Shown here piece after piece: positions 3,422-31,031 of a DNA stretch of 64,000 nucleotides. Position numbers and translations under genes: made by a program. The number at the start of each line of letters is the position of its first letter. Within the stretch, counting starts at the first letter, position 1. Source of the stretch: a virus (Duplodnaviria > Heunggongvirae > Uroviricota > Caudoviricetes); the IMG/VR virus record IMGVR_UViG_3300017650_000009; one strand, given 5' to 3'. A model generated the notes under the pieces. It was not told the origin of the DNA. It saw only the letters and a program-made list of their open reading frames with translations, and ran no database searches.

Positions 3422-3727
3422 ATGATAGCCAATTATGTCTTTCTGTTCAAGCAGTTCAAATGGGATGATCCCGAACGATCAGAATGGTTACGGATACTTT
3501 CATCTAAAACTCATGATCTGACGTATTGGTATGATTTGGCCTATAAGTATTTCACAATGGATCTTCATACGTCATTATCTTTAGAGATAGCTGCAATTTG
3601 TATCAATGATGCAAATATTGCGACGGTCCTAAGATTGCGGTTTCCCGATCGTATTTTATGTTCTTGGAACAAAAATGAAAATGAGAATCAAATAGTAGAA
3701 TATGATTATTCGCATTTAATTAGTTGA
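3422..3727 (+). CDS. divergent FKL-motif family protein
   Basis: CINDANIATVLRLRF. Confidence 0.6.
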   Translation: MIANYVFLFKQFKWDDPERSEWLRILSSKTHDLTYWYDLAYKYFTMDLHTSLSLEIAAICINDANIATVLRLRFPDRILCSWNKNENENQIVEYDYSHLIS

Positions 3728-3775
3728 CACTAAATATGTTCGGTACTATATTGGACAAATAGCAGAAATGCATAT

Positions 3776-3848
3776 GGCGGCAGTGACGTAGATGGATGCG
3801 TGCGGGCCTGTGAAGCTCAGAAGGTGGGATCGTTACCCATTTGTCGCC
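3776..3848 (+). tRNA. tRNA-His(GTG) with G-1 and C73
   Basis: G-1 then GCGGCAG/TTGTCGC acceptor, C73, anticodon loop CTGTGAA, T arm GTGGG-ATCGTTA-CCCAT; no encoded CCA; TTGACA promoter at 3724. Confidence 0.85.
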
Positions 3849-3922
3849 CTCAGAAACCAACAAATAAGTAATTGTTTGGTCCCTCCCGGTTCAGGCCGGG
3901 ATTTTTATTCAAGAGAATCCTG

Positions 3923-4367: not shown

Positions 4368-4396
4368 TAGAGCAACCGCAAACAAAGGAGGCAATT

Positions 4397-5015
4397 ATGC
4401 TACGCGGAACTCGTGTACTTACTGGTGCAGACGCAATCGCTTATACTAGTGCAATTAATACGCTCCGAGGTTGTCTTCATCGAAGCTGATTACGAAGAGG
4501 TAATCCTTCCTGCACTTTGGGAACAGCAGACATTCGTCGATAAAGCTGGGCCAGAAATCATCAATCAAATGTGGGCATTTAGGGATAAAGGCGACCGTGA
4601 GGTTTGTTTGATTCCCGAGGTAACCGGCCTTGTTCAGGAGTTGTGGCGTGACGATTGGTCCAAAAAGGCTAAGTCTCGTCGTATATTCTACGTAAGCCGT
4701 TGTTATCGCTATGAGCGCCCCCAAGCAGGACGATATAGAGAGTTTACTCAATTCGGTGTTGAACTTCTCGGAGAAGCCGAAAATGGCTGGCAGGAAGTAG
4801 TAGATCTTCTTGAGTTGTGTTTGAGTAAATTTCCAGGACTTGACTATAAGCGTTCGGACAGTGTAAAACGTGGTCTCACATATTACACAGAAGAAGGCTT
4901 CGAAGTTGAATGTCCATGCTTGGGTGCACAGAAACAAATAGCTGGTGGCGGAAGATACTCCGAAGGAATTGGTTGGGCGATTGGCGTAGATCGTCTCATA
5001 CTAGCCCGAAATTAA
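4397..5015 (+). CDS. hisS: minimal histidyl-tRNA synthetase (catalytic domain only); needs a +1 frameshift at ~4475-4480
   Basis: AAGGAGG RBS plus MLRGTR start in one frame (stop 4487-4489); +1 frame has YEEVILP, motif 2 YRYERPQAGRYREFTQFGVE, RGLTYYT, GGGRY and motif 3 GIGWAIGVDRL; no anticodon-binding domain. Confidence 0.85.
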
Positions 5016-11336: not shown

Positions 11337-11629
11337 TCCACACCACTCCTGAGGAACTAAAAACAGACAAAGCCAAACTAATTGTTTCATTGCGTTCGGG
11401 AAAGCCAGAGGATATTGCTCGGCTTCATAGCTACGCAAGTTTGACTTCACGACGTATTCGCTTCATCGATGAAAACTTCTCCCGACGTGGACGTATTCAT
11501 AATAAACTCTGGCACTCATATATTCTGGTGGTTGCTGATCAAATCATACTAGATTCGCATGATGATCTCAAAGCGTTGCAGAACTTATTATCTAACGAGT
11601 CGTTTACAATTCTTAGGGACAACACATGA
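11330..11629 (+). CDS. hypothetical protein
   Basis: coupled ORF. Confidence 0.65.
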   Translation: MLIHTTPEELKTDKAKLIVSLRSGKPEDIARLHSYASLTSRRIRFIDENFSRRGRIHNKLWHSYILVVADQIILDSHDDLKALQNLLSNESFTILRDNT

Positions 11630-11991
11630 GCGACGATACTGAATTGAAAATTTGGTTGGCTGTCCGTAAGGATATTGAAATGCCTCCTGCAAAATTCGCC
11701 GTACAAGCCGGTCATGGTTTTAGTTCCGCCCTATGGCTTGCTTTGATGGAAAACGAACAACGTGCAAGAACCTACATGAGTGGAAGCCAAGTCAAGATTG
11801 TCGTTGGTGTAAAAAACGCCGACAAAATGAAAGAAGCATATCAAGCATGTAAAGATGCAAACTTACCTTGTGCGTTTATCGTTGATGCCGGTAGAACTGT
11901 GTTTGCTGAACCAACAGCAACGGTAATGGCTGTTGGCCCTTGTTTGCGATCAGAATTACCAAAGTGTGTTAAACGTCTTCAGATGCTATAA
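11626..11991 (+). CDS. pth2: peptidyl-tRNA hydrolase, Pth2 type
   Basis: VRKDIEMPPAKFAVQAGHG, KIVV, IVDAGRT, TVMAVGP, LQML: Pth2 signature. Confidence 0.9.
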   Translation: MSDDTELKIWLAVRKDIEMPPAKFAVQAGHGFSSALWLALMENEQRARTYMSGSQVKIVVGVKNADKMKEAYQACKDANLPCAFIVDAGRTVFAEPTATVMAVGPCLRSELPKCVKRLQML

Positions 11992-19100: not shown

Positions 19101-19193
19101 CATCCGTTTCCGTTATCTAACCGAAATAAAATAAATAAATCAAGCGGTTAATGGTTCTCCGTTAGCCGTTTTTTCTATTTGTGGAGTGAGCTA

Positions 19194-20327
19194 ATGGTTA
19201 CACAACGTATCTTGGACTATCTTGCCACCTACGCCGAGGATGGCCCCGTTTTGGTTGTTGATCTTGAACTGGTCGAGCAGAACATGCTGGAGTTTAAGAA
19301 ATCGCTCCCAAGTAGTAAAATATTTTATGCTGTTAAAGCTAACCCAACGCCAGAGGTTCTAAGCTTACTTGCGAGTATGGGTTCCAATTTTGATTGCGCA
19401 AGTGTTCCAGAAATTCGTATGGCTCTTACTGCGGGAGCCAATCCGGATCAGATTTCCTATGGTAATACCATAAAGAAGCAAAAGGATATCAAGACGGCAT
19501 ATGATTTGGGTGTACGCTTGTTTGCTGTTGATTCAGTTGAAGAAGTTTACAAGTTATCAGTTGCTGCACCTGGTTCTAATATATTCTGCAGAATTCTCAC
19601 AGACGGTGAAGGTGCCGAATGGCCATTGTCTCGTAAATTCGGATGCACGGGCTCAATGGCACTTACCGTCATTCGCGAAGCAAAACGTATGGGCTTGAAT
19701 CCAATTGGATTATCCTTTCATGTTGGTTCACAGATGACACGCTTGGGTGCGTGGGACCAAGCTGTTGGTGAATGCAAGGAACTATTTGATATCCTCGCAC
19801 ACGAAGAAATCAATTTGACTCTCTTGAATCTCGGTGGTGGTTTCCCAACTCGCTACACTAGAGAAATCCCCAATACCGAAGAATATGGTCTTGCTATTCA
19901 AGCCGCACTTGTGAAGTATTTTGGAAATAATATTCCAGAAACTATCATTGAGCCAGGTCGTGGTATGGTTGGTAATGCCGGTGTTATACAATCGGAAGTT
20001 GTTTTGGTTTCACAAAAGGATGCCGACGAGGAATATCGTTGGGTGTATTTGGATATTGGAAAATTCAGCGGATTAGCAGAAACCGCTGATGAATCAATAC
20101 GTTATCCTATTCGTACTGAACGCGATCACGACGAGTTGGGCCCATGTGTACTAGCTGGCCCGACTTGTGATTCAGCCGATGTGATGTATGAGAAACAAAA
20201 ATACATGCTTCCGCTTTCACTTTGTGTGGGTGATAAGATTCTTATCGAATCAACAGGTGTTTACACAAGCACATATTCGGCCGTAGCATTTAATGGGTTT
20301 GCTCCATTGCGAACTATAGTCATTTGA
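19194..20327 (+). CDS. odc: ornithine/lysine decarboxylase (PLP fold III)
   Basis: YAVKAN (PLP Lys), KFG, FHVGSQ, LGGGF, EPGR, GPTCDSAD. Confidence 0.92.
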   Translation: MVTQRILDYLATYAEDGPVLVVDLELVEQNMLEFKKSLPSSKIFYAVKANPTPEVLSLLASMGSNFDCASVPEIRMALTAGANPDQISYGNTIKKQKDIKTAYDLGVRLFAVDSVEEVYKLSVAAPGSNIFCRILTDGEGAEWPLSRKFGCTGSMALTVIREAKRMGLNPIGLSFHVGSQMTRLGAWDQAVGECKELFDILAHEEINLTLLNLGGGFPTRYTREIPNTEEYGLAIQAALVKYFGNNIPETIIEPGRGMVGNAGVIQSEVVLVSQKDADEEYRWVYLDIGKFSGLAETADESIRYPIRTERDHDELGPCVLAGPTCDSADVMYEKQKYMLPLSLCVGDKILIESTGVYTSTYSAVAFNGFAPLRTIVI

Positions 20328-22749: not shown

Positions 22750-23361
22750 ATGCAAATTACTTCCAGTCTGGTCCCTATGGTCGTTGAACAGACCAACCGC
22801 GGCGAACGTTCATATGATATTTTCTCTCGCTTGCTGAAGGAACGCATTGTGTTCTTGAACTCGCAGGTCGAAGACGGCATGGCCAATCTTATCGTCGCCC
22901 AGCTGCTTTTCCTCGAAGCCGAAGATGCTGGCAAGCCAATCAACCTCTACATCAACAGCCCAGGCGGCGTTGTTACTGCTGGTATGTCCATCTACGATAC
23001 TATGCAGTATATCACTTCTCCGGTTCATACGCTGGTTCTCGGTCAGGCTTGCTCGATGGGTTCGTTCTTGGCCAACGCCGGTGAGCCTGGCCATCGCTAC
23101 ATGCTTCCAAGTGCACGTCACATGATTCATCAGCCATCGGGCGGTTCGCGTGGCCAGGCAACTGACATGGAAATCCAGCTCAGAGAAATCATGAAGATGA
23201 AGGAATACCTGACGAAGTGCTATGTCAAGCACAACTCGAAGGGCAAGACTTACGAGCAGATGCTGGCCGATATGGAACGCGACTACTTCATGAGCGCGGA
23301 AGAATCTCTCGAATATGGTCTTGTCGATAAGATTGTGACCAGCGCAAACGAAGCTAAGTAA
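22750..23361 (+). CDS. clpP: ATP-dependent Clp protease proteolytic subunit
   Basis: [29 protein letters not shown] (Ser), MIHQP (His), [10 protein letters not shown] (Asp). Confidence 0.97.
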
Positions 23362-24035: not shown

Positions 24036-24970
24036 ATGATGCAGCGCAAACGTGTTGCACAAGAGTTAAATAACTCCCACAGCAATGTAGGCTAAGTTGG
24101 ACACTAGTCCAAAGTTATAGAGTTTGGCCGCTTAGGGCCATTAATGGGATAAGGCAAGTGATTGCCCCAAAGCTAGGTTTCCCATAAACTAGCGTCAGAA
24201 ATGATCCTACTAAGCAAGCACGAATCTCCGGCGAACGGTGTGTCCCCTTAGGGGTGGCACTAAGCGGGAAGGTAAGGTGTAGAGTTCCCCGAAAGGGAAT
24301 AATGTCAGAGCCATTCGGTGAGACAAAAAGGCCGCAAGCCAGCTCGCACATGCAAACTTACTGACCGCCGATGATTAACGTGTAGGGAAATAAGTCCAAT
24401 ACTTAGCGGTAAAGGGCGGTTCCCAATACAAGAGGAATGGTCTGCAATGGTCATTGCTCGAAGGATGTCTAAGTAACTCGCAAGGTGAAAGGAAATATTG
24501 GCGTGGTGCATTCGGTTTGATGAAAGTCAAATTGAACATCAGGAACAGCACGTCAAGGTGGGTTTGCGATAGCATAGTGGTTATGCAACGGCCTTCTAAG
24601 CCGTCGAACGTAGGTTCAAATCCTACTCGACAAAAACAAAACGCAAAGACTGTTCCGGTAATGTGTGAAAGATGCTTAATGCTCCAGGAGCAATCCAATG
24701 GAGTCACGTGGAAGCCTGCAAGCCGAAACGTGTTTATAGAGGAAGGTTCATAACAGTTTAGCGACTGTGAGCGGCATGCGAGTGTCGGTGGGCTAGAAAC
24801 TGTAGAATAGCACATTATGTCGCGTCTAACGCCTGACGCTAAAAACGGCAGCATTGGTGAATACATGTTGAGGGTTTACTCCAGCATGTGGAAAAAGACA
24901 GAACTGTCCGGGTAGCACTGGAACAGATAATGGTCGAAGGTCACTACAAGAAGCTGTATTCTCAGGCTTT
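24036..24970 (+). ncRNA. large structured ncRNA, GOLLD-like
   Basis: ~930 nt with no credible ORF, many short hairpins with GNRA-type loops, embedded tRNA, TTGCAT(24001)-17-TATAAC promoter, terminator 24973-24996. Confidence 0.6.
24563..24634 (+). tRNA. tRNA-Arg(TCT)-like domain embedded in the large ncRNA
   Basis: GCAT/ATGC D stem, ACGGC-CTTCTAA-GCCGT, GTAGG-TTCAAAT-CCTAC; bulged acceptor, no CCA. Confidence 0.7.
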
Positions 24971-25500: not shown

Positions 25501-25560
25501 TGGTTGACACTTTTATTTCCTATGTTAGAACAGGTTATCGAAACAACAAAGGAGATACTA

Positions 25561-26160
25561 ATGTCGATTAAGAGTCTTATTTGTGCGGCTGCTATTGCGT
25601 TTGCTGCCATTCCAAGCATTGCTCAAGCTGCGCCAACTGCTTTCGGTATTTCGCCGACGACTGATGTCAGTTCAATCGGCTGCAAGCAGATCGAGGGTAC
25701 CACATATGCATGTGAAGTACCAACACCAAATAAAGCATTTCGAACCTACGAAGTGACCGTGTCGAATGATGCTCGGCAATCCGTATGCAAGGTTTCCGCA
25801 TATACGTCGGTGAAGGACTATGATTATTCCGCACTAAAAAGCGAAGCTATATTCAACGTGCTTCGCGGCAAACTCTCTCAGATTTATTCCGATGATTTCA
25901 AATCTGGCCGTGTGCCGGCCGATGATCGCGAACGTGCAATAGTTGGTGATATCAATACAGTTGATGCACTACGAACTGGTTTCTACGAGATTCAGGCTTC
26001 TTGGTCAGGTTCAATCGGAAACGAAAAGCTTCCAAAAGGCGCATCAATCGTTCTTGCTGTGAAAGCACCATCGAGTTCACAGACATATGTGTCACTGGAG
26101 TATTACTTCGGTGGGGTTGGTTGCTTCGATCAAGCCAGCGAAGGCACGGAAGGACTCTAA
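25561..26160 (+). CDS. secreted hypothetical protein
   Basis: Signal peptide ending AQA; AAGGAG RBS. Confidence 0.75.
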   Translation: MSIKSLICAAAIAFAAIPSIAQAAPTAFGISPTTDVSSIGCKQIEGTTYACEVPTPNKAFRTYEVTVSNDARQSVCKVSAYTSVKDYDYSALKSEAIFNVLRGKLSQIYSDDFKSGRVPADDRERAIVGDINTVDALRTGFYEIQASWSGSIGNEKLPKGASIVLAVKAPSSSQTYVSLEYYFGGVGCFDQASEGTEGL

Positions 26161-28000: not shown

Positions 28001-28570
28001 ATGTCATCATTTCGTTTAACTGATACTCACATTTATTTCTTGGGTTCCAATTTCAGTCAATGGGTTCGTTCACCATTTGAGGGTTTCCTTCATGCTTTGG
28101 TTAATGGGAAGTTAATCCAGATTGATACTAAACTAATGTTCACTTGTGCTGAACAATATATGATGGCGTCCAAAGCGATTCTTTTTGAGGATCTCGAAAT
28201 TCTCGAAGAAATCATGGCTACCACCAATCCAGCAGATCATAAAAGACTTGGTAGAAAAGTAAAAAACTTTGATGCTGATGTTTGGAATGCTCATGCACGT
28301 GATCTCGTTTATATGGGCAATTATTGGAAATTTACTCAACATGATCCATCCAAGCAATTTCTCGATTCGGTGGGTCAACGCACAATTGTTGAAGGTGCAG
28401 ATTACGATCCCGTTTGGGGGGTAAAATTGGCATGGGACAATCCCAAAATTGAAGATGATTCTAATTGGGCTGGAACAAATTGGCTTGGCCAATGCATCAT
28501 GCGTGTTCGTGAGGATATCAAGTCACACGGTTCCGACCAAAATCCTTTTGAGTTGATTCGACCATGGTAA
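28001..28570 (+). CDS. NADAR (YbiA-like) family protein
   Basis: FSQW, AEQYMMASKA.LF.D, K.LGRKV.NFD...W, KFTQ, VEG..YD.VWG, G.NWLG..IM.VR. Confidence 0.9.
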   Translation: MSSFRLTDTHIYFLGSNFSQWVRSPFEGFLHALVNGKLIQIDTKLMFTCAEQYMMASKAILFEDLEILEEIMATTNPADHKRLGRKVKNFDADVWNAHARDLVYMGNYWKFTQHDPSKQFLDSVGQRTIVEGADYDPVWGVKLAWDNPKIEDDSNWAGTNWLGQCIMRVREDIKSHGSDQNPFELIRPW

Positions 28571-29073
28571 CTAAACCGCATAACTCAATCTGTTACATTG
28601 AGACACCAGGGCATCCAAACCTCATAATAGATGGTCATGGAAAGAGCTTTGGCTTCCCACAAGAATATGGAAGAATCAATAAACCAAATAAGGATTATTG
28701 GAAAGCATACAAGTATGTTTGGCAGTTTTATAAAAATGTAGCTGATGAAATTGGTTTTGATTTGCCATTTACTTGGGTCGTGGCTACACCTTTGAATGAA
28801 CATTATAGGAAAAGACGGTTCAACAAAGGCGTATATAAGATGGAACCTCAGGGTCCCACTTGTGCGGTACAAAGCTATTATGATTTGAAACTAGCTATTT
28901 CAAATCATAGCAATCATTTTTCGATACTTTCGAAAGAGGATTGGGATAAACGTGCTCGTATGTTCTTTATGGTTAATAAACCAGCCAAATCATTAAATTT
29001 GCCACATGGCATATATGATAGCTATTTGATTTTATGTGAGAGTTGGTTGCTAAAACAAGAAACTCGTAGTTGA
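28564..29073 (+). CDS. hypothetical protein
   Basis: ORF. Confidence 0.6.
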   Translation: MVTKPHNSICYIETPGHPNLIIDGHGKSFGFPQEYGRINKPNKDYWKAYKYVWQFYKNVADEIGFDLPFTWVVATPLNEHYRKRRFNKGVYKMEPQGPTCAVQSYYDLKLAISNHSNHFSILSKEDWDKRARMFFMVNKPAKSLNLPHGIYDSYLILCESWLLKQETRS

Positions 29074-29117
29074 CAATAATCCTTTCCATGCTATGTGAGT
29101 GTGGAAAGGAGTTTTTT

Positions 29118-29807
29118 ATGCTCGATATCAAAATTATTCAGTCGATTCTGTTTGGTCTTGTTCTTACCACAGTTTCGTATTTCGTTGGCCTCCAGGCCGG
29201 CTGGATTGAGAACCTCAATCATCTGGAAGCGCTTGCAGTATTTGCCAATTACATGAGTGCATACTTATGTGTGGTACAAGCTCGTTCCAATTATCCCATC
29301 GGCATTTTCGCAACGTTCCTATATAGCTGGTTCTATTGGACAGGCGAACCTGAGCCGGCAAAAGCACTGGCCATTTTCAACTTATATTTGGTATTCTCCC
29401 TGACATATGGCTATTTCCGTTGGGGACCAGATGGCAAGCCTCTCACGGTTTCACGCGTCAAGCCCGTTTGGTGGCTCGGTTATGTGGCAATTGGTTCGGT
29501 TGTCGGCGCATTGCTTTGGGTTGCCACACTATATGGGGCACAAATTACGCCACTCGAAGCTACGATCTTTGTTATCATGGGTGTTGCTCAGTTCCTCCTG
29601 GATAACAAGAAACTTGAAACTTGGGCTGTCTGGGCTGTAGTTAATGTGTTGAGCATTTACTTCTTCTGGACGCAGGGCTGGTACCTTGTTATGTTCCAGT
29701 ATTTGTTCTTGCTTTGCAATACGATTTGGGGCTGGTCCGAATGGGCTCGCTCGCACAAGGAAACAACAAATGCGCAAACGTTATCGAATAGCGGCATACG
29801 CTATTAG
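29118..29807 (+). CDS. pnuC: nicotinamide riboside transporter PnuC
   Basis: Multi-TM; NYPIG, YGYFRW, AQFLL..KKLETW..W..VNV, WGW.EW. Confidence 0.85.
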   Translation: MLDIKIIQSILFGLVLTTVSYFVGLQAGWIENLNHLEALAVFANYMSAYLCVVQARSNYPIGIFATFLYSWFYWTGEPEPAKALAIFNLYLVFSLTYGYFRWGPDGKPLTVSRVKPVWWLGYVAIGSVVGALLWVATLYGAQITPLEATIFVIMGVAQFLLDNKKLETWAVWAVVNVLSIYFFWTQGWYLVMFQYLFLLCNTIWGWSEWARSHKETTNAQTLSNSGIRY

Positions 29808-29994
29808 ACAAGATGGGGAGATCACATGGAAAATCCAATGGACCCGGTTGGGATTCTTTTGGAAAGATGTGATCGCCCCCGGTTATACAACTACTACTTG
29901 GACTATGCACAATCTTGCATTTGCCCAAAAGTGTGTTAAGAATCTTGAAGAAGCCGAAAATGTTCGGCACGGAAAGAAAAAGGAAAAGAAATGA
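29770..29994 (+). CDS. hypothetical protein
   Basis: AAGGA RBS; ATGA-coupled to nadR. Confidence 0.55.
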   Translation: MRKRYRIAAYAIRQDGEITWKIQWTRLGFFWKDVIAPGYTTTTWTMHNLAFAQKCVKNLEEAENVRHGKKKEKK

Positions 29995-31031
29995 TCGGCT
30001 TTCTTAACATGACTGCATTGGTGCCCACAATCGGGCACCAATATTTGGTTTCCTTCGCTGCTAGTTTTATGCAGTTGAAAAAAGGAACCCTATATGTGGT
30101 CATTAGTGGAAGGTCGTTCGAACCAATTGCGGCGAGCGATCGTCGCAATTCCTTTATCCGTCAATTCAAAGCCTATGATAACGTCATCATTACGAGTGTC
30201 GATGATGACGCTGCACCACAACAGGATGATGGTACCCAGGAGTTTTGGGATTATTGGGTTAAGATTGCAACTGATGCGACCGGTGGTGAACCAGTTGATT
30301 ATTTGTTTGCAAGTGAGACTTATGGTCAACCCTACGCGGATCAGCTAGGCGCACAGTTCATTCCTTGCGATATAAAGCGAGAAACATTCGATGTTCGTGG
30401 GACTGATGTTCGATCAAATTTGATTGAGAATTTCGATCATATCATGCCAGAGTTTCGCCAGCACATTGCGAGACGAATCACAGTTTTTGGTTCTGATTCA
30501 ACTGGCAAAACAACGATGACACTCAAATTAAAACAAGCTTTTGAACCATATTCCACATCCTTAGTGGAATGGGCTAGACCTTATTTGGAAACTGTTGGTA
30601 CCGAAGTCACTATTGGACGTATGCTGAATATCATTGCCGGACAATTTGCAATGCAGCAGGCATCAAGTGCGACAAAACTGTCACCGTTGGTATTTCAGGA
30701 TACTGATATGCTGACAACAATTGGCTATCATCGCATTTATGGTATGGATATCCCTGATGAACTAATTGAGGGGTTCAAACGTACCAAAGCCGATTTATAT
30801 CTGGTGATGAATAGTGGTATTCCATTTGAGAAAGATCCACTTCGTTATGGTAATGGAGCTCGTGAATCAACTGATCAGTTTTGGATCGATTTGCTTGAAG
30901 AATTTGATTGTGAGTATAAATGTGTTACAGAGGTAGTTCAACATGAGCAAATTGCTCAAGCCGTTGATCATGTAACAAAGTTCGTTAAGCGAGCTCATGC
31001 TCCGATCGAACAATTTGATAGGAATGCGTAA
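29991..31031 (+). CDS. nadR: NadR-like NMN adenylyltransferase / ribosylnicotinamide kinase
   Basis: PTIGH, FASETYG, VRGTDVR, P-loop GSDSTGKTT, EWAR, DTD, DPLRYG. Confidence 0.85.
   Translation: MIGFLNMTALVPTIGHQYLVSFAASFMQLKKGTLYVVISGRSFEPIAASDRRNSFIRQFKAYDNVIITSVDDDAAPQQDDGTQEFWDYWVKIATDATGGEPVDYLFASETYGQPYADQLGAQFIPCDIKRETFDVRGTDVRSNLIENFDHIMPEFRQHIARRITVFGSDSTGKTTMTLKLKQAFEPYSTSLVEWARPYLETVGTEVTIGRMLNIIAGQFAMQQASSATKLSPLVFQDTDMLTTIGYHRIYGMDIPDELIEGFKRTKADLYLVMNSGIPFEKDPLRYGNGARESTDQFWIDLLEEFDCEYKCVTEVVQHEQIAQAVDHVTKFVKRAHAPIEQFDRNA

Follow-up and report, generated by a model that had tools for sequence, protein, structure and literature searches.

The window analysed here is a 64,000-nt stretch of DNA from a tailed virus (Caudoviricetes; IMG/VR record IMGVR_UViG_3300017650_000009). 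Its content is phage-like, with a Gp23 match, tRNAs and a predominance of small genes without known function, and the called protein of the gene described below was found on a contig of 434,884 bases. Elsewhere the window encodes a Pth2 peptidyl-tRNA hydrolase (11626-11991), a PLP-dependent decarboxylase (19179-20324), ClpP (22750-23358), a NADAR/PnuC/NadR-like NAD salvage cluster (28001-31028) and, on the minus strand at 40900-61998, two giant proteins of 3232 and 3778 aa with FG-GAP repeats. The region of interest carries a tRNA-His gene followed by a short histidyl-tRNA synthetase-like gene, here called mini-HisRS, which is divided over two reading frames:

3724..3752, plus strand: sigma-70-type promoter-like site ahead of the tRNA-His (an 11/12 consensus match only)
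3776..3848, plus strand: tRNA-His(GUG), anticodon 3810-3812, encoded G-1 at 3776, C73 at 3848, no encoded CCA (Rfam, relaxed ARAGORN)
3884..3901, plus strand: terminator-like hairpin after the tRNA-His (sequence scan)
4385..4391, plus strand: ribosome-binding site AAGGAGG (sequence inspection)
4397..4489, plus strand: zero-frame leader ORF, ATG 4397, 30 codons, stop codon TGA 4487-4489 (ORF reading)
4467..4471, plus strand: internal Shine-Dalgarno (SD)-like GAGGT, 3 nt 5' of the P-site codon (anti-SD energy, conservation)
4475..4480, plus strand: predicted shift site, P-site CTT (re-pairing to TTC) and A-site His codon CAT (conserved pair)
4479..5015, plus strand: HisRS catalytic core in the +1 frame, 178 codons, stop codon TAA 5013-5015 (Pfam, PDB, model)

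CTT (4475-4477) forms leader codon 27 and is followed by CAT (4478-4480), codon 28 and the sole His codon of the leader. The predicted fused product combines 27 leader and 178 core residues. The original prediction, made from the window sequence, had placed the ribosome-binding site, the start codon at 4397, GAGGT, the spacer, CTT, CAT and the +1 core at positions that all match the sequence, and had described a 205-aa product without histidine; a count of the 27 + 178 residues gave 0 His. Translation of this product itself requires no histidine, as had also been proposed. At the window's His content of 1.91% the probability of 0 His in 205 residues is 0.019. The calculated pairing energy of GAGGT with the anti-SD was −7.1 kcal/mol, and −9.9 kcal/mol was obtained for E. 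coli prfB over an equal span. No significant RNA structure was found around the shift site (z −0.6 and −0.8). A second SD followed by GTT-CAT occurs at 24738-24751 in a non-coding stretch after a tRNA-Arg gene; it is one among 6 such matches in 64 kb and is probably due to chance.

The junction was checked in contigs from eight sequencing runs. Bridging contigs from six of these (X1, X3, X5, X6, X9 and X16) showed no indel at the junction, and X8 and X19 had no coverage of it. X1 may be the window's own source run, and the X6 contig bridges the junction narrowly, with fewer than 31 letters on one side. X5 is a diverged strain with 31 substitutions, none of which lies within 4369-4498, and X16 gave a contig from an RNA run without a deletion at the junction, at a depth of 2 and possibly derived from DNA. 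The nearest cultured relative, Sinorhizobium phage Phosso (PV764938; 469 kb, 80% identity), has a junction that is letter-identical to that of the window. The extra T that had been considered as a possible error in the original prediction was absent from the contigs of all six runs, and the frame break is not a sequencing error. Single-base breaks are errors as a rule and a few copies (L053, L233) lack the 5' part, but there is next to no chance that a sequencing error, a pseudogene, transcriptional slippage or a −2 shift explains the break, with the same junction in six runs and in an isolated phage, 88 broken loci of 47-83% identity to the window protein (the window excepted), no homopolymer run at the junction, variable bases among loci where −2 re-pairing would require fixed ones, and the X16 contig (depth 2, may be DNA) speaking against transcriptional slippage.

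Homologous loci were drawn from viral, metagenome and genome collections. Because only the best 80 were kept in the metagenome and genome scans, the sample is skewed to close relatives. From 211 loci with a match, 119 were scored; 82 were excluded as full-length HisRS or unanchored, 8 were 5'-truncated and 2 had no leader motif. The mini-HisRS gene was broken in 88 of the 119 scored loci and in frame in 31, and the set made non-redundant at 90% identity held 66 broken and 26 in-frame genes (total 92). All 88 breaks are +1 breaks, and every one of these loci carries [C/G]TT-CA[T/C] in the leader frame, as found by a script that sought TT-CAY in that frame within the stretch permitting a shift. 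Loci inspected outside this count included four with the cassette (L045, L050, L135, L153), six in frame (L057, L232, L242, L243, L245, L246) and three that show no leader (L053, L136, L233); L053 and L233 are Paraburkholderia-type copies without leader and junction and are apparently decayed. In a separate sample of 119 independent protein matches, 76 were without leader and had F[I/T] at the junction column, 12 were in frame, 26 were late-starting or unanchored and 5 were of other types. By inspection, distant representatives are mostly in frame. Since this holds for them as well as for 26 of the 92 non-redundant homologues, the +1 shift is dispensable. Protein P0092, a single record, is an in-frame homologue that reads through the usual junction residues and is likely a constitutive revertant or ancestor.

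On these sequence comparisons the frame break is conserved and very probably programmed. The features that the original prediction had marked for comparison, namely the frame break, the SD-3 nt-NTT-CAY geometry and the depletion of histidine, are all kept in homologues; the upstream G-1/C73 tRNA-His, relocated shift sites and bacterial copies had not figured in it. Most bacterial copies have no tRNA neighbor. Those of Pseudomonas, Paraburkholderia, Chromobacterium and Azospirillum stand alone in varied contexts, and others lie within tRNA arrays, as in Thalassospira, near an RNA ligase-kinase-phosphatase gene. Two copies were seen by RNA-repair genes, one with an RNA ligase-kinase-phosphatase gene and a tRNA array (L131, 810-5700) and one beside RtcR (L140, 7137-8726). 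Among 11 loci for other class II synthetases in these phages, the 9 whose longest frame corresponds to the gene were free of a comparable break. Related phages (L235-L240, L250-L254) encode ThrRS-like (~400 or 640 aa) and SerRS-like proteins as well as class II synthetase-like proteins of 250-270 aa, labels that derive from sequence reading; just 5 of the 398 residues of the L236 protein are Thr.

At the nucleotide level, an internal SD at prfB spacing (−4 kcal/mol or stronger) was present in 63 of the 66 non-redundant broken genes versus 3 of the 26 in-frame genes. The P-site codon is CTT in 50 and GTT in 16 of the 66 loci, and the A-site codon is CAT in 55 and CAC in 11. Exchange of CAT for CAC is silent in the leader frame and swaps Ile (55) for Thr (11) in the product; the switch accounts for 7 changes on the tree, a count that, like all tree-based counts here, rests on a quick tree. 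Among the 26 in-frame genes the junction column holds 9 different residues. The Phe codon in the +1 frame is TTC in all 66 broken loci (TTC 337/511 in cores), and 59/66 have CGG or AGG as the Arg codon three upstream, versus 228/953 in cores. Furthermore, CAT is never followed by G in the 66 loci; a G there would produce an ATG optimally spaced from the SD.

The cassette occurs at position 0 in 59 loci, at −24 nt in 4, and also at −27, −12 and +132 nt. The chance of the codon pair alone is 0.016-0.059 per relocated locus, and an SD is present at all seven relocated loci; in in-frame genes, none of 16,293 positions combined an SD with the site pair. In the quick tree, which was built from few columns, the +132 locus L114 falls into a group (96%) that also holds two genes in frame and one with the cassette at site 0. 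In L114 (2480-2640) and L050 (about 2618) the cassette lies 132 nt downstream, in the stretch before the PExT motif, and L114 still shows the former site 0 in degenerate form, now read in frame (CTT CGT). A motif-only scan of viral contigs for the +132 context gave 0 matches, and the same kind of scan for the generic cassette gave 27, of which 1 was mini-HisRS and the others were chance-like. These patterns of sequence conservation indicate that the shift signal is one acting at the nucleotide and not at the protein level.

Leader and core occupy different frames and both are needed for the HisRS fold. Leader codons 1-27 encode the HisRS N-terminus, and because an in-frame homologue aligns without gaps to Thermus thermophilus HisRS from residue 6, the leader can be seen to carry the Arg7 equivalent, in its RGT motif, and the motif-1 helix. 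Loss of Arg7 costs T. thermophilus HisRS about 80% of its activity (PMC4357726). Leader identity by codon position in the leader frame is 0.53/0.67/0.32, the third position diverging most, and the +1 frame over the leader is closed by stops in 51 of 57 loci. An alternative start of the core with an SD occurs in only 7 of 66 loci. The evidence for a coding leader, the rarity of SD-preceded starts and the lack of CAT-G therefore make internal initiation, −2 shifting and transcriptional slippage unlikely. The first of these would dispense with frameshifting altogether: the internal SD would start the core at the near-cognate ATC/ATT 7 nt downstream or at another start, and the leader would only couple. 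The SD-to-ATC distance does fit initiation and some ATG, GTG or TTG exists in the core frame in 36 of 66 loci, but the ATC/ATT position is ACN in 11 of 66 and ATG in none, SD-preceded starts are as rare as stated, the leader with Arg7 and the motif-1 helix evolves as protein, and a core alone would miss all of motif 1 at the +132 site. We consider internal initiation very improbable.

The core matched Pfam PF13393 (E 8e-18) and HisRS in the PDB (E 3e-35), and HisRS ranked first in Pfam, NCBIfam, PDB sequence and fold searches; a core-only model had a pLDDT of 87 with HisRS as its top fold match. Motif 2 is followed directly by the RGLxYY loop, so that the insertion domain is absent, and the protein ends after motif 3, without an anticodon-binding domain. 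In an alignment with T. thermophilus HisRS the equivalents of Thr83, Arg112, Glu114, Arg115, Gln117, Arg120, Arg122 and Glu130 are kept, as are the RGLxYY and motif-3 residues; Glu64 is replaced by Gln. Strict patterns for motif 2, RG[LI]xYY and motif 3 were matched by 75, 85 and 71 of the 92 sequences, respectively. The score against hisS (TIGR00442) was 130 bits, below the cut-off of 287, and that against hisZ (TIGR00443) was 69 bits, below the cut-off of 272. Among 29 matches, none was a close relative of greater length with an anticodon domain.

Mini-HisRS thus shares with HisS (PDB 1ADJ, 4RDX, 1KMM) the class II fold, motifs 1-3, RGLxYY and the arginines that bind G-1, and differs from it in length (205 versus about 420 aa), in the missing insertion and anticodon domains, in the change of Glu64 to Gln and in being His-free. 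Judged by these sequence features it derives from HisS yet falls outside HisS membership. HisZ is likewise a HisRS paralogue without an anticodon domain, but mini-HisRS is shorter, nearer to hisS, keeps the catalytic residues and is not accompanied by HisG, which was absent from the four phage records searched. The three gene-bearing bacterial genomes that were checked each possess a complete hisS together with another paralogue of 399-417 aa, probably hisZ. RefSeq labels three plasmid-borne mini-HisRS copies as 'ATP phosphoribosyltransferase regulatory subunit'.

Isolated HisRS catalytic domains and urzymes weakly acylate tRNA. The shift could sense His-tRNA while its product charges no tRNA, acting instead as a HisZ- or GCN2-like binding module or as a His-adenylate donor. 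The missing anticodon and insertion domains, the replacement of Glu64, which is essential in T. thermophilus, and the HisZ-type name given to the plasmid-borne copies would agree with such a role. It is made unlikely by the higher hisS than hisZ score, the lack of HisG, the hisS and probable hisZ genes that the three bacteria already hold, the retained equivalents of the tRNA-contacting residues Arg7, Arg115, Arg122 and Gln117, and the tRNA-His genes that adjoin mini-HisRS loci.

The adjoining tRNA-His of the window (3776-3848) scored 28.2 bits against Rfam RF00005 (gathering threshold 29, E 0.005) and was found by relaxed but not by default ARAGORN; Phosso has an annotated tRNA-His at the equivalent place. 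In the 35 loci with at least 2 tRNAs by relaxed ARAGORN, tRNA-His was the nearest tRNA in 13, versus 5.9 expected. A total of 36 tRNA-His genes comprised 25 of the G-1/C73 type, 5 of a no-G-1 type with U72/A73 and 6 left unclassed by the script, and a CU-GUG-A(A/C) loop occurs in 17 of the 25 G-1/C73 genes. Phosso, a phage of S. meliloti, encodes both the G-1/C73 type, beside the mini-gene, and the no-G-1 type, which is that of its host. A loose tRNA-His pattern, which in five phage records matched at near the control rate, was used only to locate Phosso's second tRNA-His. The phage tRNA-His genes without G-1 (PV764938 429192-429265; L009, L085, L086, L089, L098) are usually accompanied by a G-1/C73 copy and are possible host markers.

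Rhizobiales and their relatives among the alphaproteobacteria have tRNA-His of the no-G-1 type; their HisRS recognizes the anticodon and leaves the G-1 type uncharged (PMC3064791). In Caulobacter, a G-1-type pair is orthogonal (PMC3875453). Without an anticodon domain the enzyme is limited to identity elements in the acceptor stem, which is consistent with a G-1/C73 partner. The sequence evidence makes the upstream tRNA-His a likely substrate of mini-HisRS. Phage tRNAs with altered loops have been proposed to evade host nucleases, in a paper whose main text, as far as accessible, leaves His unmentioned (PMC10264068).

Broken genes encode 4 His in 13,815 residues, and 62 of 66 products are His-free; in-frame genes encode 31 His in 5,613 residues, with 13 of 26 products His-free. 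Flanking ORFs, from rough calls, contain 2.8% and 2.2% His. The depletion is therefore family-wide and strongest with the shift, since half of the in-frame genes lack His as well. Of 10 in-frame genes that lie within groups of shifted ones, 6 encode His. Only 3 phylogenetically independent pairs on well-supported branches are available for linking the shift to the absence of His; the association is not significant and, with so few pairs, is statistically unshown. The share of the depletion that is common to the whole family qualifies the original prediction. Five full-length HisRS from metagenomes (L067, L069, L079, L082, L084; 418-421 aa) contain zero His. Of the 30 ORFs of 150-260 aa in the window, just one more lacks His; it lies at 25504-26157 and has no family match.

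The cassette resembles that of prfB in its short leader (25 codons in prfB, 27 in mini-HisRS), the SD 3 nt before CUU, an obligatory +1 shift and a predicted product that supplies the ligand competing at the A site. The leader end also resembles that of E. coli prfB, which is laid out identically except that TGA replaces CAT. It differs in that the A site is a sense His codon (CAT/CAC, 66/66) and not UGA read by RF2, so that the ligand sensed would be an aminoacyl-tRNA; moreover, re-pairing is to UUC, GUU is also used, the site has moved within the gene, and the gene occurs in phages. Judged by its layout, the cassette is prfB-like in its working without being a member of prfB. The yeast +1 frameshifts of Ty1, ABP140 and EST3 also combine CUU with a hungry codon, but they are eukaryotic, lack an SD, use a rare Arg or Ser codon and have products that play no part in making the tRNA that is sensed. 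His-leader attenuators and T-box regulation of synthetase genes also monitor tRNA charging in order to govern genes of amino-acid supply. They do so via RNA structure, at the level of transcription or initiation; in mini-HisRS, in contrast, the frame is set by a single codon within the coding sequence.

We propose, with a probability of roughly 0.7 given the sequence evidence, that the gene is controlled by a prfB-type autoregulatory +1 frameshift that has been rewired to sense His-tRNA-His and induces a back-up, His-free synthetase. With plentiful charged tRNA-His, CAU would be read and the leader would end two codons later. Otherwise the internal SD would strain the ribosome, and the peptidyl-tRNA-Leu would re-pair from CUU to UUC so that decoding resumes at 4479, a step that we hold to be very likely. 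The share of slipping ribosomes should then rise as charged tRNA-His drops, which we regard as quite probable. It is well established that +1 shifting is stimulated by scarcity of the aminoacyl-tRNA for the A site, by a P site prone to slip and by an SD located upstream (PMC2377451, PMC5009743). Starvation also acts on RF2 cassettes in which a sense codon has been placed. It is likely, though somewhat less so than the response to tRNA supply, that mini-HisRS would close the loop by charging G-1/C73 tRNA-His through the acceptor stem, leaving the anticodon unread. Several observations count against the proposal: the enzyme has neither the insertion domain that clamps the acceptor stem nor an anticodon domain, Glu64 is replaced, the score is below the hisS cut-off, bacterial copies are mostly without a tRNA neighbor, 3 of 66 broken loci are without SD, and 16 of 66 have GTT, which re-pairs more poorly. 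The original claim that the enzyme is made only when His-tRNA is scarce was too strong, as basal slippage is likely and 31 of 119 homologues are uninterrupted.

A real +1 frameshift could also work at a set ratio, the slow His codon keeping expression low and constant without regulation. In-frame homologues are viable, and a model of the RF2 site gives only about a 2-fold gain from low A-site tRNA (PMC2377451). Any slow codon or stop would serve such a purpose, yet a His codon is present in 88 of 88 broken loci and at five positions, and the products avoid His. A fixed ratio is improbable, and we prefer the autoregulatory reading.

In hosts with a no-G-1 tRNA-His, as for Phosso on Sinorhizobium, autoregulation would provide an inducible orthogonal back-up pair, with its greatest benefit where the host's tRNA-His or HisRS comes under attack or cannot keep pace. 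A shortage of histidine itself could not be remedied by additional enzyme, and the likelier trigger in phages would therefore be lost function of host tRNA-His or HisRS. The complete scenario, to which we give even odds, is that jumbo phages and some proteobacteria carry a 205-residue anticodon-blind HisRS gated by a frameshift at its cognate codon and that, in phages, this enzyme forms with G-1/C73 tRNA-His an inducible orthogonal pair that restores His decoding after destruction of host tRNA-His or HisRS.

A search of open-access and bioRxiv full text found no His-codon frameshift in a synthetase and no mini-HisRS family, in agreement with the original statement that such a circuit is not known for an aminoacyl-tRNA synthetase; the accessible part of a 2016 recoding review names no such case. 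The GeneTack survey contains a +1 cluster labelled 'tRNA synthetase' with 215 genes, which it assigns to phase variation; the accessible part leaves the enzyme unnamed (PMC3711429), and its supplement 1 may bear on the mini-HisRS frameshift. The 2016 review leaves open both the natural use of hungry-codon frameshifting and the bearing of virus-encoded tRNAs on frameshifting, and mini-HisRS offers a concrete, conserved and directly testable case for both questions. For annotation, gene callers give these genes false N-termini, and the RefSeq naming of some copies as HisZ needs correction. A natural half-size class II synthetase is relevant to synthetase minimization and to orthogonal pairs, and the cassette offers a one-codon His-tRNA biosensor. 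If the proposed circuit is true, no earlier case would exist of a frameshift that senses the supply of an aminoacyl-tRNA and closes a loop on the corresponding synthetase, and the circuit would point to a defence that targets His-tRNA.
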